NCBI GenBank assembly: GCA_963811025.1
Contig: CAWEPX010000033.1
Coordinates: 144,583-208,582, forward strand
Direction of reading: 5' to 3'
DNA length: 64,000 bases
Source: an uncultured delta proteobacterium
GTDB lineage: Bacteria > Desulfobacterota > Deferrimicrobia > Deferrimicrobiales > Deferrimicrobiaceae
Shown in pieces: positions 1 through 56,886 of this stretch. Below the pieces are notes generated by a model. That model saw only the letters and a list, made by a program, of their open reading frames with translations. It made no database searches and was not told where the DNA came from. Both the position numbers and the translations under genes were made by a program. Each line of letters starts with the position of its first letter. The stretch's first letter is position 1.

Positions 1-3000
1 CTCGAACGATACGCAACAGGGGCGTGCGCTGAACCGTCGCGTGGAGGTGGAGTTCTGGCACGACGATCCGCTTCAGGATCTTCCCGACGAGCCCCAACTG
101 TGCCCTGACGCCCTCGCCACCGAAACCGTCACCCGCGTCTACGATTCGCCGTCGGGTGGCATTGATCCTATTTTGTTTGAAAACGGCAAGCCTGTGATAC
201 CGGCAGGTTACACCGAACGTTTGCGTCGCATCATGGACGAGATAAGTGACAAGACCAATGTCCGCCTGCGGTTTGTCGGCTACACAAGCAACAAGCGCCT
301 CGACCGGCGGACTGCAGTGGTTTACGGAGACGACATCGGTTTGTCCATGGCGCGTGCACGCCGTTCCATGGCGGCCGTCGACGAGCAGATGGGGTTGGCG
401 GAAGGGCAGTCGGAGTTCGACGGCCGCGGCTATGTTCAGTCAGACGATGTGATAAATGCCGGTTTTATCGAGTCCGATACGTCGAGAGTCAAGGTTCAGG
501 TAGTCTACGATGAACAGATCATCCGCGACGAATACGAAGGCGTGGAAGTCACCCCCATGACTCGCGAGGTGAGCACCGCCGATCCCTTTGCCCTGAATCT
601 CATGCGCATCACGGTAGACGGCAAGCCGCTCGACGATCCGGGAAAATGCAGTTCCGATGTGCAGCGCTGCACCGACGTGGCCCTGGACAATGCCCAAATC
701 CAGGTTAAGTACGACAGCCTGAAGGCGGAACCGCGGTTGAACGTGGCCGCCTGGCCAATTACGGTCCGCTATCGGGATCTGCCGGATACTGCGTTTGCCG
801 AAAACATGGTGCATTTCCGCCTGTACTCGAACTACCGCACCTTTATAGAGAGGGCGGAAGTCAGGATTTTCGAAGAGAAGCAGTCCGTCCGCGATACCCC
901 CATTGCCGTCGTCGAGATGGATGCCGACGGGTTGGCCCAATGGCAGGCCGAGTTCGAGTCCTTCTCCGCGTCGGTTCGCAGGCTGAAATACCTGGTGCGT
1001 GTGTACGACAGAAAGGGGCTTTTTGACGAGACGAGCACCCAGCCACTGTGGGTAGTCGACAAAATCGATCCGTCGGTCGTCGAAGCGAACGTTGACGAAA
1101 AACTGCTGGTCGTTTACGGCGAGAGCCGAATCGCCAGCCGCAATATTCCCCTTCACGGCGGTACGGTGCAGGCGCACGGGACCGCGATTCCAGAAGGAGA
1201 CGGGGTATGGATGGCCGGATACAGAGTGCCGGTGGACAACACCGGTAATTTCGTGGCCGAAGAGATTCTGCCGGAGGGCATGCAAACCGTGGAAGTGGCC
1301 GTGCTCGATGAGTTCGGCGACGGCGAACTATTTCTGCGTGATCTGGCGCTGAAAAAGAACGACTGGTTCACCGTGGGGATCGCCGACCTGACCTTGTCAG
1401 GAGGCAAGACAGACGGACCGGCCGAACGGGTTGCGCCGGATAACCCCCTGTACGGCGACGACTCGAACCTCCAGGGTCGCCTGGCGTTCTATACGACCGG
1501 CAAATTCGAAAACGGCTGGTCGCTGACGGCGAGCGCCGATACGCGCGAAGGTCCCCTGGATGATATCTTTTCCAATTTTCTGGACAAGTCCCCCGAGGCA
1601 TTGTTCAGGCGTATAGATCCGTACTACCACTACCCAACCTACGGAGACGACAGCACCGTCACGCAAGACGCGCCGACCAACGGAAAGTTCTTTGTGAAAG
1701 CGCAAAAAGAGAAAACCTACGGACTCTGGGGCAATTTCAAGATCGCGTATACCGATATCGACCTGGCGCACGTGGAACGCGGGCTTTACGGCGCCAATCT
1801 GCATTATCAACCCCTCGACACCACCAGTTTCGGTGAGCCGCGCCTCTTAGTGGACGGGTATGCCTCGGACCCGGGTACCGTCAAGGGACAGGATGAGTTC
1901 CGCGGCACGGGCGGATCGCTCTATTTCCTGAGGCGCCAGGACGTGCTGGAGGGTTCCGAGCACGTGCGTATCGAGGTCCGCGACAAGGATTCCGGGATTG
2001 TTCTGGGAGTCAAGAACCTGACGCCGGTGCTCGATTACACGATCGACTATCTGCAGGGACGCATTCTGCTATCTCAGCCTCTGTCCCCGACGGCGGACGA
2101 CGGTCTCCTGGTTTCCACCCGCTCCCTCAGCGGGAATCCGGTCTTCCTTGTGACAATTTACGAGTTCACTCCGGGGTTCGACGACCCGGACACGCTGTCT
2201 ACCGGTGGCAGGGTTCATTACTGGTTTAATGACTATGTCAAGATCGGGGCGACTGCAAGTCAGGATGATGAGGAGAACGTCGATAACCGGCTGGTTGGAG
2301 CGGATGTGACCCTGCGCAAGTCCGCGGCGTCGTGGATCAAACTCGAAGCGGGGCATACCAAAGGTCCGGGCGTTTTGGCGACGAATTCCGTGGACGGCGG
2401 TTTCGGTTTCGGCACGGTGGGCAGCTTGCTCGACAATACCGCGGAAGCGCCGGCCTATCGCGTGGATGCCAGTTTGGGCCTCAAGGACATCTTTGAAAAC
2501 GCGCGCGGGAAGGTCACCTTCTACCTGCAGGATCTCGAGGCAGGCTATTCGGCGCCGGGCGTGGCCACCGCACGGGACCTGACCGAATACGGGGGAACGG
2601 CAGAGATACCGTTAACCGACCGTCTGAGCGCACAGTTGAAGATGGACAAGCAGGATCAGCAGGAAGGTCTGGAGACCGAAAACGAGGAACTAGACCTCAA
2701 ATACCAGATAGACGAGCACTGGACCCTGGGGTCGGGGGTGCGTCACGAAGAGCGCAAGGACAATTCGGTGGTGGTTCCCGCCACCCAGGAAGAGGGCGAC
2801 CGGACAGACGCAGTGGCCCGGCTGCAGTACGATTCCAATGCACGATGGAAGACCTACGGGTTCGTTCAGGGCACGGTTCAGTCAAGCGGCACCATTGAGG
2901 ACAATGACCGCGTCGGTGCCGGCGGCAGCTACCGTTTGACCGACAAGTTCAATGTCACCGGTGAGGTTTCCGGAGGAGATCTCGGGCCAGGCGCCAAACT

Positions 3001-4045
3001 CGGGACCGAGTATCTGTATTCCGACCGGACCACCATCTACAGCAATTACACGTACGAGGACGAACGGACGGACAACGGTTTGCTTGCCAGGAAGGGCAAG
3101 ATGACTTCCGGTTTCCGGACTCGTTATTCGGACAGCGCCAGTGTTTACCTCGAAGAGCTGTATACCCACGGCAATGTCCCCACGGGCCTGACGCATTCTG
3201 CCGGTGTAAAGCTCGTGGTTTTCGAGCGGCTCAATGTCGGCGCCAATATCGATTATGGAACCCTCAAGGACCCACTTACTTCGGCTGAACTCGAAAGGAA
3301 GGCGGTGGGCGTGAGCGCCGGCTACGGATTTGACAAGCTGAAGCTTGCCAGCGCCGTGGAATACCGGGTCGACGATATCGAGCAGACCGATCTCAGCTAC
3401 TCCAAACGTACCTCCTGGCTGTTGAAAAACAGTTTCAAGTACCAACTGTCAGAGGATTGGAGGCTTTTAGGCAAATTCAATTACGCTGTGAGTGACAGTT
3501 CGATGGGAGATTCCTATAGCGGTGACTATACGGAAGCGGGACTCGGCTATGCGTATCGCCCCGTCAATAATGACCGACTGAACGCGCTGCTCAAGTACAC
3601 CTATTTCTACAATGTGCCGGCGTTCGACCAGGTGACCGGAACCGGTACGCCGGCCGACTATATCCAGCGCAGCCACATCGGAGCTGTGGACGTCATGTAT
3701 GACCTGACGGACCGTTGGACCGTGGGAGGCAAGTATGCCCACCGGTACGGGCAGGTGTCCCCGGATCGGATTAATCGGGAGTTCTTCACCAGCCGGGCCA
3801 ATCTGTACGTGCTTCGCGCAGACTGGCACATCGTCTACAAATGGGATGCATTGGTCGAAGTGCGCAGACTTGACCTTCCCGACGCGGACGACAACCGCAG
3901 CGGGGTGGTGGTGATGTTGTACCGCCACGTGACCGATCATATCAAGGCGGGAGTTGGCTATAACTTCAGCGATTTCTCGGATGATCTGACCCAACTGGAT
4001 TACAGGTACCAGGGGCTGTGCGTCAACCTGGTCGGGAAGTATTAG
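1..4045 (+). CDS. Large outer-membrane protein with OmpA-like domain(s); 5' end lies outside the window
   Basis: The reading frame is open from nt 2. Window-start residues 'NRRVEVEF' match the OmpA C-terminal motif, and a second OmpA-like segment follows ('RLRFVGYTSN...LSMARARRSMAAV...RVKVQVVYDE'). About 1000 aa of Gly/Tyr/Asp-rich sequence follows with an aromatic C-terminus, consistent with a beta-barrel. It is first in an envelope gene cluster. Confidence 0.6.
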   Translation, partial: SNDTQQGRALNRRVEVEFWHDDPLQDLPDEPQLCPDALATETVTRVYDSPSGGIDPILFENGKPVIPAGYTERLRRIMDEISDKTNVRLRFVGYTSNKRLDRRTAVVYGDDIGLSMARARRSMAAVDEQMGLAEGQSEFDGRGYVQSDDVINAGFIESDTSRVKVQVVYDEQIIRDEYEGVEVTPMTREVSTADPFALNLMRITVDGKPLDDPGKCSSDVQRCTDVALDNAQIQVKYDSLKAEPRLNVAAWPITVRYRDLPDTAFAENMVHFRLYSNYRTFIERAEVRIFEEKQSVRDTPIAVVEMDADGLAQWQAEFESFSASVRRLKYLVRVYDRKGLFDETSTQPLWVVDKIDPSVVEANVDEKLLVVYGESRIASRNIPLHGGTVQAHGTAIPEGDGVWMAGYRVPVDNTGNFVAEEILPEGMQTVEVAVLDEFGDGELFLRDLALKKNDWFTVGIADLTLSGGKTDGPAERVAPDNPLYGDDSNLQGRLAFYTTGKFENGWSLTASADTREGPLDDIFSNFLDKSPEALFRRIDPYYHYPTYGDDSTVTQDAPTNGKFFVKAQKEKTYGLWGNFKIAYTDIDLAHVERGLYGANLHYQPLDTTSFGEPRLLVDGYASDPGTVKGQDEFRGTGGSLYFLRRQDVLEGSEHVRIEVRDKDSGIVLGVKNLTPVLDYTIDYLQGRILLSQPLSPTADDGLLVSTRSLSGNPVFLVTIYEFTPGFDDPDTLSTGGRVHYWFNDYVKIGATASQDDEENVDNRLVGADVTLRKSAASWIKLEAGHTKGPGVLATNSVDGGFGFGTVGSLLDNTAEAPAYRVDASLGLKDIFENARGKVTFYLQDLEAGYSAPGVATARDLTEYGGTAEIPLTDRLSAQLKMDKQDQQEGLETENEELDLKYQIDEHWTLGSGVRHEERKDNSVVVPATQEEGDRTDAVARLQYDSNARWKTYGFVQGTVQSSGTIEDNDRVGAGGSYRLTDKFNVTGEVSGGDLGPGAKLGTEYLYSDRTTIYSNYTYEDERTDNGLLARKGKMTSGFRTRYSDSASVYLEELYTHGNVPTGLTHSAGVKLVVFERLNVGANIDYGTLKDPLTSAELERKAVGVSAGYGFDKLKLASAVEYRVDDIEQTDLSYSKRTSWLLKNSFKYQLSEDWRLLGKFNYAVSDSSMGDSYSGDYTEAGLGYAYRPVNNDRLNALLKYTYFYNVPAFDQVTGTGTPADYIQRSHIGAVDVMYDLTDRWTVGGKYAHRYGQVSPDRINREFFTSRANLYVLRADWHIVYKWDALVEVRRLDLPDADDNRSGVVVMLYRHVTDHIKAGVGYNFSDFSDDLTQLDYRYQGLCVNLVGKY

Positions 4046-4116
4046 AGCGTGGGGGCTTTGCCCGATGGATGCGGAATACAAGGAAAAACGGATTTCCGAG
4101 ATGTGAGGAGGCCAAC

Positions 4117-4632
4117 ATGTTTAGCTGGCAGCGAGGCGTCATTATAGGGATTTCAGTGCTCTTTTTAAGCGCTGTCGCTTACGGGCAGGAAATCTCGAAG
4201 GAACAGATCAAGGGCCTGGATGAACAGGTCCAGGAGGTCAAGAGCGATGTCCTGAGCATCGCGGCGGAATTGAACCAGCTTGAAGAGAAGCTGCTGTATC
4301 CGTCCAACACGCAGGTCGCGGTATTCGTGTCGCTGGCCAACGGCGAGACCTTCCGTCTCGATTCGGTGGAGATCCAGCTGGACGGAGAGCCGGTCGCCTA
4401 CCACCTTTACACCTTCAAGGAGCTTGAAGCCCTGCGGAAGGGCGGGGTGCAGCACATTTACACCGGCAATGTCCGGTCCGGCGGGCATGACCTCCAGGTT
4501 CTGGTCCTCGGCAAAAACGCAGGGGGGACCGATTTCAAAAAATCGGGACGTTTCACGTTCGATAAGGACGTGGGCCCGAAGTTCGTGGAGATATCTCTGG
4601 CCGGCAAGGACATCACCATGAATGACAGGTAG
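4117..4632 (+). CDS. Hypothetical secreted protein (signal peptide, coiled-coil N-terminus)
   Basis: RBS 'gaggagg' precedes ATG 4117. The hydrophobic signal 'VIIGISVLFLSAVAYGQ' is present. No family recognised. Confidence 0.5.
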   Translation: MFSWQRGVIIGISVLFLSAVAYGQEISKEQIKGLDEQVQEVKSDVLSIAAELNQLEEKLLYPSNTQVAVFVSLANGETFRLDSVEIQLDGEPVAYHLYTFKELEALRKGGVQHIYTGNVRSGGHDLQVLVLGKNAGGTDFKKSGRFTFDKDVGPKFVEISLAGKDITMNDR

Positions 4633-4635
4633 ACC

Positions 4636-6528
4636 ATGAAGAGGCTGATAGTTTCATTGACCATTCTGATATTTTCAACGCCTTCGGCGTCGGCCGGACC
4701 GTCCGCTCCGAAGGAGCTGAGGGACCTCCACTTCGGAGAGGCCCTCTATTGCGCGTATCAGGGAGATTGGTTCGACGCCATCTCAAGGCTCGACACCGAA
4801 CTCATGCAGCACTATGGGGTGGACGAGCCAGAACGCGACATCCTTCATTATCATGTCGGCGAAGCGAAGTTCGACGTGGGCGATTTCGAGCTGGCATACC
4901 GGATGCACCGGCGGGCCGGGCGCGCCTATACGGCGGTCATCGAGGGCAACGTCGAGGAGCCGGTGCGCAACGAGGCCATTTTCCGCTTGGCGCGGCTCTA
5001 CTTTCAGAAGGATCAGCCGGTCAACGCCGAGGACGCAGTGGAGAGCATCAGGGGGGACGTCCCGCCGGAGATTCGCAACGACCTGGATTTCCTGCGCGCC
5101 CAGATCCACATGGCCAATGGCCGGTATCCCGATGCCGTGAGAATTCTGAGGGGCCTAAAGGATGCCAAGGGCCTCCAGGGCTTTGCCACATACAACCTCG
5201 GCATCGCCCTTATCAAGGACGGAAAGGAGCTCGAAGGCCGCCAGGTTCTCGACCACACGGGCCAGATAAGCGGCGTTGACGATGTCACCCTGGCGATCAA
5301 GGACAAGGCGAACCTCGTCCTCGGGTTCAAGCTGTTAAAGGAGAAGGATTTCGAGGGTGCCAAGCTGGTGCTTGACCGGGTGCGCCTAAACGGGCCGTTT
5401 TCCAACCGGGCGTTGCTTGCCTCGGGATGGGCGGACGCCTCCCAAGGACGATTCGAGAGGGCGTTGGTGCCCTGGAGCACTGTCGTGACGAGAGAGGTCA
5501 CGGACGCCTCGGTGCAGGAGGCCATGCTCGCCGTCCCTTATGCGTATGGCAAGCTGAACGTGAACAGCAAGGCAGCGGTGATGTACGACGGTGCGCTCGA
5601 GAAGTTCGATGCTGAATTCGACAACCTCGGGGCGTCCATCAAAAGCATCCGCGAAGGCAATTTTCTCCGGGCTCTGACGCGGGAGGAACTGAAACAGGAC
5701 GCTGACTGGGTCGTCAAGCTGCGCGAGCTCCCCCAGACTCCCGAGACATATTACCTGCTTGACCTGATGGCCTCCCATGATTTCCAGGAATCCCTGAAGA
5801 ACTATCTCGACCTGGAGCAGTTGCGCACGAAGCTTTACTCCTGGGAAAAAGATTTGGACGCTTTCGAGGATATCATTGCGCAACGCTGGGCATATTACGA
5901 GCCGCTTCTTCCAGTCATCGACCGGGAGTTCCGGCGGCTTGACTCACAAATGCGCCTGCGCCTGGAGCAGCGGGACCGCATCGAGCAGCGTCTTACGGCC
6001 ATGCTGGTGGTCCCGAGGCCCGATTATTTAGCGACCGCCGAGGAAAGGGTCATCGGTGAGCGGATCGCGCTCTTGGAGCGAAAGCTGACTACGGGTGGCA
6101 CAGCAGTACCCGACGAGGTCGACGCCAGAATCAACCGTTTGCGGGGAGTGCTGCACTGGAACGTCTATACGGAATACGACGGTCGCTTCACAGAGGCCTA
6201 TAAGGATCTACGCGACCTCAATCGAGAGGTGGACCTGTTGAAGAGGCAGTACTCCGCCTTTGTCCGCACCCGCCAAGCCGCCACCCAGAGCTACGAAGGA
6301 TACGACGACGTGATCCGTCGCCTGAGGTCGACGATAGGAAAGGCCCGGGAAAAGGTGGGCCAACTGATGGCACGACAGGGCCAAATGCTCGAGACCATGG
6401 CCGTCAACGAACTCAACGCCCGCCGTGATCGGCTTGCCAAGTTCCAAACCAAGGCAAGTTTTTCCATGGCGGACAGCTATGACCGCGCCACCAGGGCCCA
6501 GATCAAGGAAAAGGAAAAGGGTGAGTAA
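4636..6528 (+). CDS. TPR-repeat periplasmic protein
   Basis: Signal peptide 'MKRLIVSLTILIFSTPSASA'. TPR-like helical repeats throughout. The stop overlaps the next start (taaATG). Confidence 0.65.
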   Translation: MKRLIVSLTILIFSTPSASAGPSAPKELRDLHFGEALYCAYQGDWFDAISRLDTELMQHYGVDEPERDILHYHVGEAKFDVGDFELAYRMHRRAGRAYTAVIEGNVEEPVRNEAIFRLARLYFQKDQPVNAEDAVESIRGDVPPEIRNDLDFLRAQIHMANGRYPDAVRILRGLKDAKGLQGFATYNLGIALIKDGKELEGRQVLDHTGQISGVDDVTLAIKDKANLVLGFKLLKEKDFEGAKLVLDRVRLNGPFSNRALLASGWADASQGRFERALVPWSTVVTREVTDASVQEAMLAVPYAYGKLNVNSKAAVMYDGALEKFDAEFDNLGASIKSIREGNFLRALTREELKQDADWVVKLRELPQTPETYYLLDLMASHDFQESLKNYLDLEQLRTKLYSWEKDLDAFEDIIAQRWAYYEPLLPVIDREFRRLDSQMRLRLEQRDRIEQRLTAMLVVPRPDYLATAEERVIGERIALLERKLTTGGTAVPDEVDARINRLRGVLHWNVYTEYDGRFTEAYKDLRDLNREVDLLKRQYSAFVRTRQAATQSYEGYDDVIRRLRSTIGKAREKVGQLMARQGQMLETMAVNELNARRDRLAKFQTKASFSMADSYDRATRAQIKEKEKGE

Positions 6529-9500
6529 ATGAAGCGGATCCGACTTTTCCTTTGCGCGGCGCCATTGATGCTGGCCGCATGTGCCTCGGTAAGCAACAGG
6601 GATACCATTGCCACGTTGCGACATGAGCATATCGAGATCAAGGAGGAGAAGATCGAGGGCGGGCTTGAGAAAGCGATGATGAGTTACAAGCGTTTCCTGA
6701 AGGACAAGCCGGACTCCACCTTGACGCCAGAGGCCATTCGTCGTCTGGCCGACCTGAAGATCGAAAAAGAATACGGCACCTTCACGACGGACGCCGGGAC
6801 TACCGGGTCGGCCCGGGCGTTGCCCCCCCCTGAACACGTGACGCCTCCCGAGTCCTCTCCGGTCGCCGGAGCAGCGCCGGAGCAGGCAGTGGCGCATATT
6901 CCGGTCCACGACGAGTCTGAGGCGGACTTTGTAGATCGTGCAGCCCACAGCCTGGCGGCGGACAGCACGGCGACGGCCACTGACAGGTCCGTCGGAGGAA
7001 CCGGCGATCTCGAACGGACTGGCGCCCGCGAGGCCATTGCGCTTTACCAGAAGCTTCTCGATGATTACCCCCTTTATGAACGCAACGACCAGGTGCTGTA
7101 CCAGATGTCCCGAGCGTATGAGGAACTGGGGCAGACCGAGGAGGCCATGGCGGTCATGGACCGGATGGTCCGCGAGTATCCACAGTCTCGGTATTTCGAT
7201 GAGGTGCAATTCCGGCGCGCTGAATACTACTTCGTGCACAGGCGCTACTTGGATGCCGAGAATGCCTACGAGAGCATCGTGAATATGGGCGCCGATTCAC
7301 AGTTCTACGAGCTGGCCCTGTACAAGCTGGGATGGACGTTCTACAAGCAGGACCTCTATGAGGACGGCCTGCAATGGTTTATCGCCCTAATGGACCACAA
7401 GGTGTCGGTGGGGTACGACTTCGAACAGACCGAGGACGAGCAGGAACGAAAGCGGACAGACGACACCTTCCGGGTCATCAGCTTGAGTTTTTCCAACCTC
7501 GGCGGAGCCGATTCCGCGGTGGAATACTTCTCGAAACACGGCAAGCGCAGCTACGAGGACAGCATATACAGTAACCTCGGCGAATTCTACTTCGACAAGC
7601 GCCGTTACGCCGACGCCGCCGCGACCTACAAAGCCTTCGTGGATCGCAACCCGTACCACAAGGCGGCACCGAACTTCCAGATGCGGATTATCGAAATTCA
7701 CGCTGCCGGCGGATTTCCCACTCTCGTTCTTGACTCCAAAAAGACATTCGCCGCGGCCTACGGTTTGCAGGCTGATTACTGGAAGTATTTTGCTCCGGGG
7801 GAGAGGCCGGACGTCCTTGGTTATCTGAAAACCAACTTGACCGACCTGGCGAACCATTATCATGCCTGCTATCAGGACCCCCGGCTGGCCAAGGGAAAAA
7901 TCTGCAAACTTCGAAGAGGCGCTGCACTGGTACAGGGAGTTTCTGACCTCGTTCCCCGCGGACCCCGAATCGCCTGCTATCAACTACCAGTTGGCGGATC
8001 TACTGATGGAAAACCGGTCGTTCGGAGAAGCGGCCGTGGAATTCGAGAAGACCGCGTACAACTATCCGACCCATGCAAAATCCTCCCAGGCTGGCTTCGC
8101 GGCGGTCGCCGCGTACCGGGAGCAACTGGCCGCCGCCGCTCCGGAAGACCAGGACGCGGTCAAACGGGAGGTCGTTCGCAGTTCGCTTACGTTTGCCGAT
8201 ACCTTCCCGGAACACGAAAAGGCTGCGATCGTTCTCGGGGCGGCCGCGGATGACCTGTACGGGATGAAGGAATATGAACAGGCGCGCGCCGCCGCCAACA
8301 GGCTCATCGAGGCGTTCCCCAGCGCAGAAACTGACGTCGTCCGCGAGGCCTGGCTGGTCGTCGGCCATGCATCTTACGAACTCTCGCGCTACGGCGAGGC
8401 CGAGGGCGCCTATATGAATGTATTATCGTTGCTTCCAGCGGAGGACACATCGCGCGAAGCTCTGATGAACAATCTCGCGGCATCGATTTACAAGCAAGGG
8501 GAGCAGGCCAATGCCGCCCAGGATTATAGAGCCGCAGCGGACCACTTCCTGCGGGTGAGCCGCGTGGCGCCGACCTCGAAAATCAGGCCGACCGCCGAAT
8601 ATGACGCTGCCGCGGCCCTGATCCAGGTCAAGGACTGGGAGGCGGCAGCATCGGTGCTGGTTGGATTCCGCAATACCTTTCCCGAGCACCCGTTGCAGCC
8701 CGAAGTGACAAAGAAGATCGCCTATGTCTACAGGGAAAACAATCAACTTTCCCTCGCGGCCATCGAGTATGAACGTATCGAAAGGGAATCCCGGGACGAC
8801 GAGACCAGGCGGGATGCTCTCCTGGTTGCGGCGGAGTTGCATGAAAAGGCAAACAATAGCGCCCGCGCGCTTGAGGTGTACCAACGCTACGTGGGCTTTT
8901 TCCCGCAACCGGTGGAGCTCAACCTGGAGACGCGAAACAAAATTGCCGGGATCCTGAAGGCACAGAACGACCGCACATCCTATCTTGAGGAACTCGAAAA
9001 GATCGTAGCCATCGACGCCTCGGCGGGGAGCGAACGGACCCTGCGGACCCGCGAACTTGCCGCACAGTCCGCATTGGTGTTGGCCGAGCAGGCATATGAC
9101 GCGTTTATTGCCGTCGACCTGGTACAACCCTTTGAGGTCAATCTGCAGAAGAAGCGCGAGCTGATGAAGATTGCTACACAGAAATTCAGTCAGCTCGTGG
9201 ATTACGAGATTGGGGACATCACTGCCGCGGCGACGTTCTATCTGGCCGAGATCTACGCCAACTTCAGCAAGGCCCTGATGGCGTCGGAGCGTCCCACGGA
9301 CCTGAGCCCCTTGGAACGGGAACAGTACGAACTGGCCATCGAAGAGCAGGCCTATCCGTTCGAAGAAAAGGCCATCGAGGTCCATGAGAGCAATCTCAAG
9401 CTGATCTCCCGCGGGGTATACAATGCGTGGATCGAAAAGAGCCTTCAGAAACTGGCGAAGTCCGTGCCCGCGCGATATGACAGGCCGGAAGATGCCAGCG

Positions 9501-53986: not shown

Positions 53987-54063
53987 CGGGACGTAGCGCA
54001 GTCTGGTAGCGCACTTGCCTTGGGAGCAAGGGGTCGCCGGTTCAAGTCCGGCCGTCCCGACCA
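53987..54063 (+). tRNA. tRNA-Pro (anticodon UGG)
   Basis: Acceptor stem CGGGACG/CGUCCCG. D-arm GCGC-AGUCUGGUA-GCGC. Anticodon stem CUUGC/GCAAG with loop CUUGGGA. T-arm GCCGG-UUCAAGU-CCGGC. Discriminator A plus CCA encoded. Confidence 0.85.
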
Positions 54064-54247
54064 ATTTTTTCAATTAGTTACAAATTTCACCTTCCTGGAT
54101 GAACATTCATTTGTGACTGATTTGAGACGTTCCGGTGTGAAGTTGCCCCTCTTTCGGCCGGACACGCATCGTTTGTGAACGCCTTGGTCCTATTCATCCG
54201 AAAGATTTTTCGTGTGATCACCTGATAGGGGTGATATCATCACCCCT

Positions 54248-54532
54248 ATGAAGGCTACCTTGATCCGCCATTCCCGATTACGTTTCGCTGACGGGGGAAT
54301 GATCGAGGTGAAGCTATGGAAGGTTCCACAATCGGCGTACGCGCCTCACGGCTACAAGTATTCCCTGGTTTATATCGAGGGGAGGAAACGGGTCATAGGC
54401 TATGACAACGGTGAGCGGCGCGGTGACCATCGGCACTATGCCGACACAGAGGATTCCTACGCATTTACATCCATCGATAATCTGATCCGGGATTTTCTGC
54501 GAGACGTCTCGAAGTGGAGGGCGAAGAAATGA
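54248..54532 (+). CDS. Small toxin-like protein (DUF6516/TumE-like family; name recalled from memory)
   Basis: 'GYKYSLVYIEGRKRVIGYDNGERRGDHRHYADTEDSYAFTSIDNLIRDFLRDV'. A 4-nt ATGA overlap links it to a downstream HTH gene. Confidence 0.5.
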   Translation: MKATLIRHSRLRFADGGMIEVKLWKVPQSAYAPHGYKYSLVYIEGRKRVIGYDNGERRGDHRHYADTEDSYAFTSIDNLIRDFLRDVSKWRAKK

Positions 54533-54903
54533 AGATCAAGAAACTGAACATCGGGATCCGGAGCGTCGATCAGGTCATGGGCGATTTCGCGAAAGCGGCC
54601 AAAGCATTGGAGCGGGGAGAGCCGGTGTCGAAAAAGGAAGGTCTCTATTTCATCGATCTTCGTGCTTTCCGGCGGGCCCTCACCGACCAGCGACTTGCCA
54701 TCCTGCGTACGATCAAGGAACGCAATCCGGACTCGGTCTACGAGCTGGCCAAGATCATCCAAAGGGACGTCAAGAACGTTTCGGCCGATCTGTCTATCCT
54801 GGAAGAGTTGGGACTTGTCGAACTCAGAAAGACGAAAACAGTGCGGGGAAAGGTCAAGCCATCGGTCCCGTACGACTCGATCCATCTGGACATCGCGGTA
54901 TGA
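54529..54903 (+). CDS. HTH DNA-binding protein, putative antitoxin/regulator partner (HVO_A0114/TumA-like)
   Basis: Winged-helix-like segment 'QRLAILRTIKERNPDSVYELAKIIQRDVKNVSADLSILEELGLVEL'. Translationally coupled to the upstream small gene. Confidence 0.5.
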   Translation: MKIKKLNIGIRSVDQVMGDFAKAAKALERGEPVSKKEGLYFIDLRAFRRALTDQRLAILRTIKERNPDSVYELAKIIQRDVKNVSADLSILEELGLVELRKTKTVRGKVKPSVPYDSIHLDIAV

Positions 54904-55065
54904 CGGCTGGATGAGCGTTCATTCATCGTTTGTGACCGATTTGTGACCATCCGGTGCCTGGAATGCTTGGATGGGGTGGCCCGCGGGGAAGGTGTGGACA
55001 TCGCAACCCGCAGATTTTCCTAGGGTCGCATTTCTGCTTGTTTTTCAGAAAGTTAGGCTGCCCAA

Positions 55066-55110
55066 CTTGGGAGCAAGGGGTCGCCGGTTCAAGTCCGGCC
55101 GTCCCGACCA
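55066..55110 (+). repeat. 45-nt direct repeat of the tRNA-Pro 3' portion (anticodon loop to CCA); att-like
   Basis: cttgggagcaaggggtcgccggttcaagtccggccgtcccgacca is identical to 54019-54063. Confidence 0.8.
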
Positions 55111-55274
55111 GTTTTTTTTAAGGTACGTTGTTTTCGGGCATCTCTTCTTCTCGCTCTATTCGAGTCGTGTCAAGGGGGGCCGGTACCTGATCGACCATGC
55201 CCAATAGGCCGCCTCTTCTCCTGGTGGGATTCGGATTGACGTGTGTACGATGTTGGTCTATTATACCAACATGA

Positions 55275-55566
55275 ATGGCGAGCTCTTTTTTACACGAAAA
55301 GATTACGGACGAGCTGGGCAATACGGTAGAGATAAAGATTTGGCGGGTTCGGGTTTCGGAGCACACCCGCGCACGATTATAAATACTCTCTCGTATACGT
55401 CGGGGACGGGGAGCGGATCATAGGTTTCGACAACGCGGAGCGAAAAGGTGATCATCGGCATTTCTTGGGACGCGAAGAACCTTATCGTTTCCGAGGGCTG
55501 CCGCAACTCGTCCGGGATTTTCAGGGGGACGTTGCACGGTATACGGAGAAGCGACATGAAGGTTAA
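55275..55566 (+). pseudogene. Second copy of the DUF6516/TumE-like gene, frameshifted near 55350
   Basis: Frame b gives 'MASSFLHEKITDELGNTVEIKIWRVRVSEH'. The adjacent frame gives 'TPAHDYKYSLVYVGDGERIIGFDNAERKGDHRHFLGREEPYRF...'. Together these are homologous to 54248-54532. Confidence 0.45.
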
Positions 55567-55921
55567 GAAGGTCATGATCGGCATCAAGAGGGTCGAGGCG
55601 GGCCTGGGGGACTTTGTCCGCGCAGGGGAAGCGGTCGAGCGCGGCGAGAAGGTGAAGAAGGAATCCGGGATCTACATCACGAGCTTGGATGCGGTACGGA
55701 AGGTGCTGACCCCGCAACGGATGGCTCTCCTGCGCCTGATCCGGGAGGAGAAACCCGAATCGCTGCATGAACTGGCGAGGCTGGCGCGACGGAACATCAA
55801 GAACGTCTCCGACGACGTCCGGTATCTGGCCCAGGTTGACCTCATTGAACTCAGGGAATCGGACAAGAAGGTCTCGGCGCGGGTGAACTACGACACGATT
55901 CTCCTGGAAATTGCAGTGTGA
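55556..55921 (+). CDS. Second HTH partner protein (paralog of 54529-54903, ~45% identity)
   Basis: 'MKVKKVMIGIKRVEAGLGDFVRAGEAVERGEKV...QRMALLRLIREEKPESLHELARLARRNIKNVSDDVRYLAQVDLIEL'. Confidence 0.5.
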   Translation: MKVKKVMIGIKRVEAGLGDFVRAGEAVERGEKVKKESGIYITSLDAVRKVLTPQRMALLRLIREEKPESLHELARLARRNIKNVSDDVRYLAQVDLIELRESDKKVSARVNYDTILLEIAV

Positions 55922-55983
55922 CGTAGACCTCCGGCGGTGAATCCGCGAGGAAGTCGAGGAGGGAAGCAATCCGGTGACGACCT

Positions 55984-56886
55984 TTAGGCCTCTGTCTCGA
56001 ACGCGGGGGCGAACACGTTACGAGCGAATTCCTCCAGCGTGGTCCTGGTCGAGTTCTCCGGGCTTCGCTTTTGTGTCGGGACGATCGCGCCCGCGTTGAA
56101 TCCCCGCTCCATCTCGAGCATCGCATCCGCCGCGCTGGGCGACATGCCCATCCCGATCATCTCCCCGCGCGCATCCTCCTCGGGGAACTGGACGTATTGC
56201 AGGTCCGGTTTTCCGATCGCCTCGCCCAGGATCCTGGCGGCCTCGGTCATCGTCAGGTCCCGGGGCCCAAGCAGGTACCGGACCGCGTGTCCGGTCACGG
56301 ATTCCTCTCGCAGCCGCCGCGTGGCCTCCTCCGCGATATCCCGGGTGGCGATCATGGGAATCGGGACGTCGGAGCGGGTCGGGCTCCCGCTTATCCCGTT
56401 CGCCCGGATCACGGGTATGCTCCAGAGATGGTTCTCCATGAAGTAGCCCGGGCGCAGGATGACGACCGCGGCCCCCTGGAGTCCGCCGAGCTTTCCCTCC
56501 ATGTCGTGCAGGCCCAGGATCGGCCCCGTTCCCCGGGACAGGTGCGCCCCGACGGAGCTTAGGGCGACGACGCGCGGGACCCGGGCAGTTTGCAACGCGG
56601 AGGTCAGGCTGTCCGCGATCCGGTTCTGGTATCCCCGGTAGTCCGGGGCGTCGTATCCAGGGGGGATCAAGACGAAAGCGCCCCGGGTCCCTGCGAATGC
56701 CTTTGCGAGGAATTCGGCATCCCCCAGGTCGCCCGACCACGGGTCGGCGCCCTTCGTCTCCAGGGGACCAAGGCGGGTCCGATCGCGCCCGACGGCGCGA
56801 ACCGGTTCCCCGGCGGCAAGAAGCGTTTCGACTACACGGGAACCGATATTTCCCGTCGCCCCGCAGATCACGATCGGAGATTTCAT
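55984..56886 (-). CDS. NmrA-family NAD(P)-binding protein
   Basis: 'MKSPIVICGATGNIGSRVVETLLAAGEPVRAVGRD' is a Rossmann fold with an NmrA-like tail. Confidence 0.75.
   Translation of the reverse strand: MKSPIVICGATGNIGSRVVETLLAAGEPVRAVGRDRTRLGPLETKGADPWSGDLGDAEFLAKAFAGTRGAFVLIPPGYDAPDYRGYQNRIADSLTSALQTARVPRVVALSSVGAHLSRGTGPILGLHDMEGKLGGLQGAAVVILRPGYFMENHLWSIPVIRANGISGSPTRSDVPIPMIATRDIAEEATRRLREESVTGHAVRYLLGPRDLTMTEAARILGEAIGKPDLQYVQFPEEDARGEMIGMGMSPSAADAMLEMERGFNAGAIVPTQKRSPENSTRTTLEEFARNVFAPAFETEA

Follow-up and report, generated by a model that had tools for sequence, protein, structure and literature searches.

We describe a locus in a 64-kb stretch of DNA (64,000 nucleotides, hereafter the window) from an uncultured bacterium, which RdgB-based retrieval places in Candidatus Deferrimicrobiaceae (phylum MBNT15). 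The locus consists of a tRNA-Pro(UGG) gene followed by two small toxin–antitoxin (TA) modules of the TumE–TumA type, and is likely to be the residue of at least two successive tyrosine-integrase insertions into the 3' half of the tRNA gene. The first module, tumE1–tumA1, belongs to an integrase-less unit, named here cassette 1, which resembles the cis-mobilisable elements (CIMEs), and the second, tumE2–tumA2 or module 2, is an older remnant, the two having been laid down by successive site-specific integrations. The arrangement is well explained by known biology, as an ordinary scar of mobile DNA at a tRNA gene, and provides a clear and well-bounded case of a TA operon outliving the mobile element that delivered it. 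It also shows a single tRNA gene accumulating TA modules. The features of the locus are as follows.

53987–54063, + strand: intact tRNA-Pro(UGG) gene (ARAGORN; Rfam tRNA model, 69.9 bits)
54019–54063, + strand: putative attL copy of the repeat, the 3' 45 nt of the tRNA gene (exact match to 55066–55110)
54064–54136, + strand: mosaic left junction of cassette 1 (pairwise alignments, direct repeats)
54137–54247, + strand: conserved tumE1 upstream region (common to cassettes in L082, L096 and L127)
54248–54532, + strand: tumE1, intact gene for a 94-residue TumE/DUF6516 toxin (PF20126, 54.2 bits)
54529–54903, + strand: tumA1, gene for a 124-residue HVO_A0114-type winged-helix protein, putative antitoxin and autorepressor (PF25212, 84.5 bits)
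54904–55065, + strand: arm X, conserved non-coding cassette terminus of about 160 nt (74–90% identity in relatives)
55066–55117, + strand: partial tRNA-Pro copy, putative attR (45 nt exact, 52 nt with one mismatch)
55111–55274, + strand: module 2 upstream region (92% identical to L131)
55275–55566, + strand: tumE2 pseudogene (three-frame translation; comparison with intact tumE2 of L131 and L132)
55556–55921, + strand: tumA2, intact gene for a 121-residue HVO_A0114 protein (PF25212, 81.5 bits)
55922–55959, + strand: last stretch homologous to the module 2 cassette of L131–L133 (blastn end-points)

The tRNA-Pro gene and its repeated 3' half

ARAGORN detects a single tRNA in the window, the tRNA-Pro(TGG) at 53987–54063, which is identical at 77 of 77 positions to the tRNA of cassette-free relatives. 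The 45-nt sequence CTTGGGAGC...CCCGACCA occurs exactly twice in the window, at 54019–54063 and 55066–55110, and no match was obtained in any of 100 shuffles of the window. The exact repeat covers tRNA positions 33 to 77, from two bases ahead of the anticodon to the last nucleotide of the tRNA; if one mismatch is allowed (A versus G behind ACCA, before a run of T), the match reaches 52 nt. A repeat reaching from the anticodon loop to the tRNA 3' end is the pattern typical of integrase crossover sites. As for elements targeting tRNA genes, this direct repeat of the 3' part brackets DNA of low GC content and foreign composition: GC amounts to 0.49–0.56 across 54050–55550 versus 0.63–0.70 in the flanks, and is back at 66–70% beyond about position 55959. 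Only two open reading frames (ORFs) lie between the repeats. The flanking genes are ordinary chromosomal ones, coding for PntB, PntA, RNase PH and Ham1/RdgB upstream, and for an NmrA-like protein, a histidine kinase and a sigma-54 regulator downstream. The G following ACCA in the partial copy is also found in the tRNA flank of most relatives, the remaining ones having T, and the sequence 3' of this copy is homologous, along its length, to the post-tRNA flank of the related locus L131 (relatives are designated by L numbers). The attR copy at 55066–55110 would accordingly represent the displaced original 3' end of the tRNA gene.

An initial annotation, made from the sequence, had reported the complete tRNA gene with an exact 45-nt copy of its 3' part, which ARAGORN, Rfam and the shuffle test bear out. 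Its attL/attR reading agrees with relatives L118, L095 and L123, in which 42–52-nt copies of the tRNA-Pro 3' end bracket islands coding for Phage_integrase proteins. The flanks of cassette 1 do not, however, amount simply to a 'classic' pair of sites, the left 74 nt being a recombination mosaic and the partial copy being preceded by the conserved arm.

Anatomy of the two modules

The coupled pair coding for proteins of about 94 and 124 residues, the latter with a helix-turn-helix (HTH), that the same annotation had placed between the two copies was recovered, tumE1 and tumA1 overlapping by ATGA. To the left of the pair, positions 54064–54098 resemble the post-tRNA flank of L131 in pairwise alignment, while 54094–54137 is a partial direct copy of the sequence following the tumA1 stop codon, that is, the start of arm X, the junction being a CTGGA microhomology. 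Only from 54137 onwards is there a core in common with other cassettes, and the left side of cassette 1 is not conserved. This mosaic points to deletion and illegitimate recombination in the history of the cassette.

An 11-nt perfect inverted repeat, ATAGGGGTGAT/ATCACCCCTAT, is present at 54225–54249 and abuts the tumE1 ATG. Its core, GGGGTGA..T[ACT]ACCCC, is kept in homologues of 67–70% identity (L088, L090, L134 and L136) in which the rest of the upstream region has diverged. A simple promoter scan returned no match at threshold for module 1, and a -10-like TATCAT is embedded in the inverted repeat. From this placement, the repeat is a good candidate for the TumA1 operator, and the tumE1 mRNA is probably leaderless.

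Arm X contains two TTTGTGACC repeats, at 54929 and 54940. It is 74–90% identical in six loci (L083, L093, L096, L123, L127 and L132), where it is always located directly 5' of a 42–45-nt copy of the tRNA 3' end, and its upstream cargo differs in two of the six, namely, the upstream cassette of L083 and module 2 with an orphan tumA1 in L132. These properties are those of a putative attP-type arm. Its single-stranded DNA folds no better than shuffled sequence (z +0.74), and arm X was rejected as an attC-like hairpin or a known RNA.

A further motif, of the TTTGTGAC type, has five of its six matches in the whole window within the 1-kb unit of cassette 1, on the + strand at 54110, 54121, 54172, 54929 and 54940, with an inverted partner at 54072–54085. 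Such motifs are found in all tRNA-linked TumE–TumA (TumEA) cassettes and are absent near TumEA pairs elsewhere. They may correspond to arm-type sites of an integrase. A role as TumA operators is unlikely, because it is the GGGGTGA/TCACCCC repeat, and not TTTGTGAC, that is conserved outside the tRNA arrays.

With regard to module 2, a sigma-70-like promoter, TTGACG-17-TATTAT, is present at 55236–55264, 6 nt from an ATG, and an inverted repeat, GTTGGT-N7-ACCAAC (55252–55270), which differs from that of module 1, surrounds the -10 box. At both modules the layout is consistent with TumA autorepression at the inverted repeats and with leaderless mRNAs. The second, diverged module with a frameshifted first gene described in the initial annotation was confirmed by translation, Pfam and comparison with L131. 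In tumE2, MASSFLHEK...SEHT is encoded in one frame from 55275, and HDYKYSLVYV...RHEG, with the stop codon, in the next frame, ending at 55566. Relative to the intact L131 orthologue, the gene carries a +1 insertion near 55368–55371 and a 1-nt indel in a T-run near 55286; the repaired TumE2 aligns with TumE1 and with the intact TumE2 of L131. TumA2 shares 48% identity with TumA1 (tblastn). Its search retrieved 86 homologues, and a 92%-identical one is carried by three short contigs (L131–L133). Look-ups of the exact sequences of the NmrA-like protein, TumA2 and the 157-residue version of the TumA2 gene call matched no record. The right edge of the foreign segment is situated at about position 55959, 25 nt before the stop codon of the convergent NmrA-like gene.

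Order of insertion

The order of the two insertions can be read from L131, in which RdgB is followed by a full tRNA-Pro and directly by intact tumE2–tumA2. Since module 2 directly follows the full tRNA there, cassette 1 was inserted later than module 2, and since the flank after the partial copy in the window aligns with the post-tRNA flank of L131, module 2 once abutted the tRNA gene. Both the tRNA–module 2 order in L131 and the flank homology support the earlier proposal of successive integrations. On the L132 contig, module 2 is succeeded by a tumA1-like gene standing as an orphan, and then by arm X and a 45-nt copy.

We propose the following scenario. An older element would have left tumE2–tumA2 immediately 3' of the tRNA. 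Later, a unit of about 1.05 kb, comprising tumE1–tumA1, the arm of about 160 nt and a tRNA 3' half that it brought along (1047 bp including one core copy), would have recombined with the tRNA gene in the anticodon loop. The element-borne 3' copy would now complete the functional tRNA (attL), the original 3' end having been pushed 1047 bp downstream (attR, 55066–55110). This recombinase-free unit could be a deletion derivative of an integrase-bearing element, or could have moved in a CIME-like manner by means of the integrase of a neighbouring or co-resident element.

A different origin of the 45-nt copy would be a local tandem duplication, or unequal crossing-over, of the tRNA gene plus a TA module, the two modules then being old paralogues. 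The tandem arrangement of two homologous modules, and a further short direct repeat inside the unit (54095–54137 and 54907–54956), are in line with such an event. However, the modules are only about 48% identical at the protein level while the 45-nt repeat is exact, module 2 stands alone after the full tRNA in L131, and partial copies in relatives bracket unrelated cargo and integrase-bearing islands. The limits of the repeat, the anticodon loop and the 3' terminus of the tRNA, are moreover typical of integrase crossover sites. We regard duplication as extremely unlikely.

A recurrent integration site in related genomes

The L002 relative, with an RdgB 91% identical, is collinear with the window at 87.6% identity over 6.5 kb upstream. 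In both relatives from GTDB, this tRNA is followed by less than 150 nt before the contig ends. When metagenomes were scanned with the 43-nt 3' half of the tRNA as query, 38 contigs were returned, which were then submitted to a sensitive search for partial copies. In addition to the two copies of the 45-nt repeat in the window, this extended search for further copies revealed partial ones in 14 of the 38 contigs carrying the tRNA-Pro 3' half. Thirteen of these carry 3' copies starting at tRNA positions 26 to 39, nearly all of which reach position 77, and the fourteenth (L112) has a copy of the tRNA 5' half only. The tRNA 3' half had no match in viral contigs.

To establish array maps, a protein panel was mapped onto all loci, and Pfam confirmed the presence of Phage_integrase, IS91, MNT, HEPN, ParE/ParD, NYN and SMODS families. 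Representative arrays and islands are given below, where t' followed by a number denotes a partial tRNA copy with its length in nt, and Int an integrase.

L127, array: tRNA; MNT-HEPN; t'52; TumE–TumA; t'42
L123, array: tRNA; IS91, Int, MNT-HEPN; t'52; truncated TumE'–TumA; t'45; ParDE
L096, array: tRNA; TumEA; t'45
L118, island: 9.5 kb between tRNA and t'52, with Phage_integrase, SMODS nucleotidyltransferase and restriction-modification-like genes
L095, island: 6.2 kb, integrase adjoining the tRNA
L082, array: NYN; t'51; TumEA-MNT; t'43; then IS91 and integrase fragments

Three partial copies are present in L122. The related arrays are composed of TA cassettes of 0.8–1.5 kb (TumEA, MNT-HEPN, ParDE, NYN), each ending in a 42–52-nt copy of the tRNA 3' end. 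A small element recurs in L115 and L123, made up of the tRNA, (IS91), Int, a ribbon-helix-helix (RHH)-MNT-HEPN cargo, an arm of about 190 nt (arm Y) and a 52-nt copy. These comparisons identify tRNA-Pro as a recurrent integration hotspot in Deferrimicrobiaceae (MBNT15); as far as the literature was searched, no such hotspot is described for the MBNT15 lineage.

Comparison of the locus in relatives, as advocated in the initial annotation, disclosed empty and occupied alleles. In L125, the full tRNA is followed by the flank that comes after the last partial copy in L083, and L130 and L111 stand in the same relation to L093. Cassette 1 itself is polymorphic in presence, L131 lacking it (tRNA, then module 2). 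TumE1 homologues of 87–94% identity are always found with TumA beside tRNA-Pro or a partial copy (L082–L087, L096, L123 and L127). The nucleotide identity of cassette 1 is about 92% across loci, when that of the host rdgB extends from 96% (L096) to 80% (L127). In L127, cassette 1 is 91.7% identical versus 79.7% for rdgB, and window positions 55066–55959, with module 2, are 92.4% identical to L131 versus 81.4% for the rdgB region. Since the cassettes are about 92% identical while rdgB is only about 80% identical, both modules have spread horizontally between lineages.

The same contigs bear on the possibility of an assembly artefact, in which the assembler would have placed at the tRNA a cassette 1 that really belongs at a different location or to another strain. 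Among public sequences, cassette 1 is most closely matched by a unitig of 1060 bp with both ends inside the repeat, many related contigs break at tRNA-Pro, and the source is an assembly from an uncultured lineage. Yet independent assemblies read unique sequence through the junctions, both between tRNA and TumEA (L084 and L087) and from TumEA through the partial copy into the next unit (L096, L127 and L123), and ordinary 150-nt reads span a repeat of 45–52 nt. Misplacement is thus very unlikely.

Other features of the site deserve mention. Synteny breaks at the tRNA-Pro gene: relatives agree in gene order on its upstream side, but the genes downstream of the tRNA or array differ per lineage (CysK-type in L130, Na/H exchanger in L083, YkuD in L082, and NmrA, histidine kinase and response regulator in the window). 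The tRNA lies within about 100 nt after rdgB in all loci except L096, where a segment of about 2.9 kb with an ORF of about 609 codons (1986–4875) separates the two, the rdgB being 95.8% identical. Next to rdgB, L127 (812–1062), L112 (1080–1330) and L117 (1985–2088) carry a copy of tRNA-Pro positions 1–45. Behind this copy come a GC-rich, non-coding insert of 206 nt, a T-arm fragment of 10 nt and finally the full tRNA. The insert is 97% identical between L127 and L112, and 84% identical over 105 nt in L117. The arrangement has the appearance of a distinct miniature insertion by which the tRNA 5' half was duplicated.

Genes of the IS91 family (Y2 transposase) are present in L094 (2752–4104), L115 (537–1889) and L123 (474–1826), with fragments in L082, L098, L102, L107, L114, L117, L122 and L128. 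Their recurrence between tRNA and integrase in many independent contigs suggests that IS91 inserts preferentially at one point within the left end of the Int-MNT-HEPN element. The L118 island (192–1669 and 3253–9403) codes for a SMODS nucleotidyltransferase, resembling those of cyclic-oligonucleotide-based antiphage signalling systems (CBASS), accompanied by a small membrane protein as partner. It further contains an ORF resembling GHKL-type ATPases and two resembling DNA methyltransferases, the latter with a small endonuclease-like ORF; the integrase and SMODS alone were checked against Pfam. This 9.5-kb island appears to be a defence island.

The TumE–TumA cargo

The initial annotation had assigned the pairs to the TumE and HVO_A0114 families, and the Pfam families PF20126 (TumE) and PF25212 (HVO_A0114) agree with it. 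Against cut-offs of 23.4 and 27.6 bits, respectively, TumE1 scores 54.2 bits, covering 2–80 of the 81 model positions, and TumA1 and TumA2 score 84.5 and 81.5 bits, with overlapping ArsR/MarR HTH matches. The bicistronic pair is conserved at every homologous locus examined. Invariant TumE residues are K37-Y38-S39, Y52-D53-N54 and D60-H61-x-H63, and 943 clusters of relatives are found at 50% identity. The fold of the 94-residue protein was approached by an AlphaFold (AF2) model with a mean confidence (pLDDT) of 92, composed of six strands and a C-terminal helix, for which neither a significant fold neighbour nor a sequence match was found in the PDB. NCBIfam and PADLOC returned no TumE model, and only generic winged HTH (wHTH) matches for TumA. 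TumE1 and TumA1 both match full-length PHROG families of unknown function.

These properties are close to those of the published TumE–TumA superfamily (DUF6516/PF20126; Durairaj et al., Nature 2023, PMC10584680), namely, a small protein encoded in an overlapping operon with a DNA-binding partner, with no PDB homologue by sequence or fold, and carried on plasmids, phages and islands. The published fold is a seven-stranded antiparallel sheet with two helices, versus six strands and one helix in the TumE1 model. Furthermore, the validated pairs belong to the gammaproteobacterial subcluster 1a, in which the toxin is usually downstream, whereas the toxin comes first here, an order also unlike that of clusters 1, 2, 4 and 6 (PMC10584680). 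Six gammaproteobacterial DUF6516 toxins arrested the growth of E. coli and were neutralised by their partners, and one TumE toxin lowered 35S-methionine incorporation, indicating translation inhibition; RNase activity was proposed for TumE without demonstration (PMC10584680). The statement that the mechanism is uncharacterised is therefore too broad, toxicity, neutralisation and, for one toxin, the block of translation having been shown for other members of the family. By analogy, TumE1 may be toxic and neutralised by TumA1, the cargo being a putative type II TA operon in which TumE, a small beta-rich toxin with relatives that block translation, would be counteracted by the winged-helix TumA. 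The latter would also repress the promoter through the inverted repeat overlapping the -10 box and start codon.

Post-segregational killing would keep such TA pairs when the rest of an island is lost, and could explain why toxins decay while antitoxins stay. Toxin decay is reciprocal between the loci (window, 55275–55566; L131, 1668–1910; L132, 888–1262; L123, 4571–4648): the window keeps tumE1 and has lost tumE2, while in L131–L133 it is tumE2 that persists and tumE1 that is gone, tumA1 being an orphan there, and L123 has a truncated tumE1. Both antitoxin genes are intact at every locus covering them, and this retention beside decaying toxins lends indirect support to a toxic action of the TumE proteins. 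The orphan TumA genes might act as anti-addiction modules. Taken together, intact, toxin-frameshifted, toxin-deleted and orphan-antitoxin loci form a natural TumE/HVO_A0114 set for studying toxin mechanism and cross-neutralisation.

Similar pairs are also found elsewhere. A toxin-first DUF6516/wHTH pair, annotated as hypothetical, is inserted in an E. coli Stx1c-converting prophage (L138; PQ600364.1, 15113–15761), and another lies beside the rep gene of a Variovorax megaplasmid (L137; NZ_LR594668.1, 557135–557847). TumA-like proteins are frequent on haloarchaeal plasmids. Distant TumEA pairs (67–71% identity) are surrounded by PIN, HicB, MazF and MNT-HEPN genes, without tRNA copies.

Integrase loss and mobility of the cassettes

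The absence of an integrase or other element genes reported in the initial annotation was confirmed by tblastn and by a motif scan of the window, in which the tyrosine-recombinase C-terminal pattern had no match. With no integrase between the repeats, we rejected the identity of an integrative element with its own integrase. A weak similarity of 25 residues to three island integrases (NP..+PL....GR.RY; E 0.95–7.6) is located at 55962–56039 on the + strand, at the right edge of the foreign segment, where it overlaps the C-terminus of the convergent NmrA-like gene. We treated it as not significant given these E-values; it could be coincidental, or else all that is left of an integrase gene.

Integrases are present in the sister islands L118, L095, L119, L115 and L123. 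Those of the MNT-HEPN element form a decay series, with an intact gene in L115 and L123, fragments in L107 and L122, and none in L108 and L127, where a 0.95-kb MNT-HEPN unit stands alone between the tRNA and the 52-nt copy. This neighbouring element family directly illustrates the earlier suggestion of an island that decayed until nothing but its addiction modules was left. The series concerns the arm-Y element and not the arm-X TumEA unit. Unlike the anatomy and the insertion order, which are read directly from the loci, the acting integrase and any present-day mobility are points that we infer.

These units of about 1 kb could instead belong to an active system, in which cassettes made of cargo, a conserved arm of about 160–190 nt and a tRNA-Pro 3' half are excised and re-inserted by an integrase acting in trans, with an integron-like shuffling at tRNA-Pro. 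Several features are compatible with this view. One and the same TumEA cassette takes the first or the second place in arrays, in hosts with 75–96% RdgB identity; cassettes terminated by arm X differ in their upstream cargo (L083 and L132), and arm Y likewise terminates NYN, MNT and Int-containing units; partial tRNA copies are 98–100% identical while the adjacent arms differ by 10–26%; and Int-bearing units adjoin integrase-less ones (L123). However, such high identity of the partial copies would in any case follow from the invariance of the host tRNA, the left boundaries of TumEA units are not conserved and show microhomology joins typical of deletion, and the MNT-HEPN units display a plain series of integrase decay. 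Moreover, neither a circular junction nor an arm-X integrase was found, and an attC-like hairpin in arm X and an IntI/attI platform are both lacking. The left junctions, which vary, and the decay series argue for mostly passive remnants, and active shuffling is improbable. In its widest form, with trans-acting integrases capturing, reordering and exchanging miniature TA and defence cassettes between species, the idea that tRNA-Pro(UGG) anchors an integron-like system is unlikely. If it were true, the window would display a recent cassette insertion placed ahead of an earlier cassette, and the hotspot would offer a compact model of cassette-style gene exchange in an uncultured phylum.

With regard to successive integrase-mediated insertions, which remain our preferred reading, several observations weigh against it. 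No significant integrase was detected in the 64-kb window by tblastn with three integrases from related islands, and no integrase-bearing element with arm X was found among relatives. The left junctions of TumEA units differ between loci, which fits deletion and illegitimate recombination better than a precise cassette. A third tRNA copy on the right-hand side of module 2 was not detected at E≤0.5, so the right end of the older element has been lost, and the downstream flank of the window is found in no relative, so the empty site for this exact genome is missing. The source is probably a metagenome assembly, so that misassembly could account for the frameshift and, in principle, even for the joins at the 45-nt repeat. 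Finally, the antitoxins of the validated TumE toxins are unrelated to the HVO_A0114 winged-helix partner encountered here (PMC10584680).

Comparison with known mobile systems

Like integron cassettes, the arrays are composed of small, mostly promoter-to-terminator units with a conserved terminus resembling a recombination site, and TA cassettes are typical stabilisers of large integron arrays. The arrays described here are, however, anchored on a tRNA and lack an IntI/attI platform, their termini are tRNA 3' halves with a linear arm instead of attC hairpins, and their recombinases are ordinary Phage_integrase proteins inside some units. An identity as integron cassettes was rejected on the basis of the arm X fold (z +0.74, no attC hairpin) and the missing IntI/attI platform. 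A similar tandem arrangement is known from tycheposons, which are tRNA-linked island arrays.

In the Dehalococcoides ssrA islands (PMC3146451), repeated partial copies of the target-gene 3' end likewise separate successive islands, and the site is a synteny and assembly break between close relatives, as in MBNT15, where many contigs break at the tRNA repeat. Compared with these islands, the cargo at tRNA-Pro consists mostly of addiction and defence modules, and many units are devoid of integrase.

The closest parallel is provided by CIMEs, which have kept attL and attR but have lost integration and transfer genes, and are decayed integrative and conjugative elements or integrative and mobilisable elements (CIMEs and tandem accretion after Pavlovic 2004 and Bellanger 2011, as reviewed in PMC5704250). 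Cassette 1 similarly keeps attL and attR without integration and transfer genes, it lies in tandem with another element at a tRNA 3' end, and in relatives an integrase-bearing neighbour uses the same core. It differs in that no conjugation or mobilisation genes are seen in any related island, and the units are far smaller (about 1 kb), carrying only a TA operon. The structure of L123 (Int unit, t'52, TumA unit, t'45) is the arrangement that cis-mobilisation, as a possible route of movement, would need. The TumE–TumA family and tRNA-linked remnants are known as such; of further interest are the arrays of miniature TA cassettes found family-wide at one tRNA gene in an uncultured phylum.

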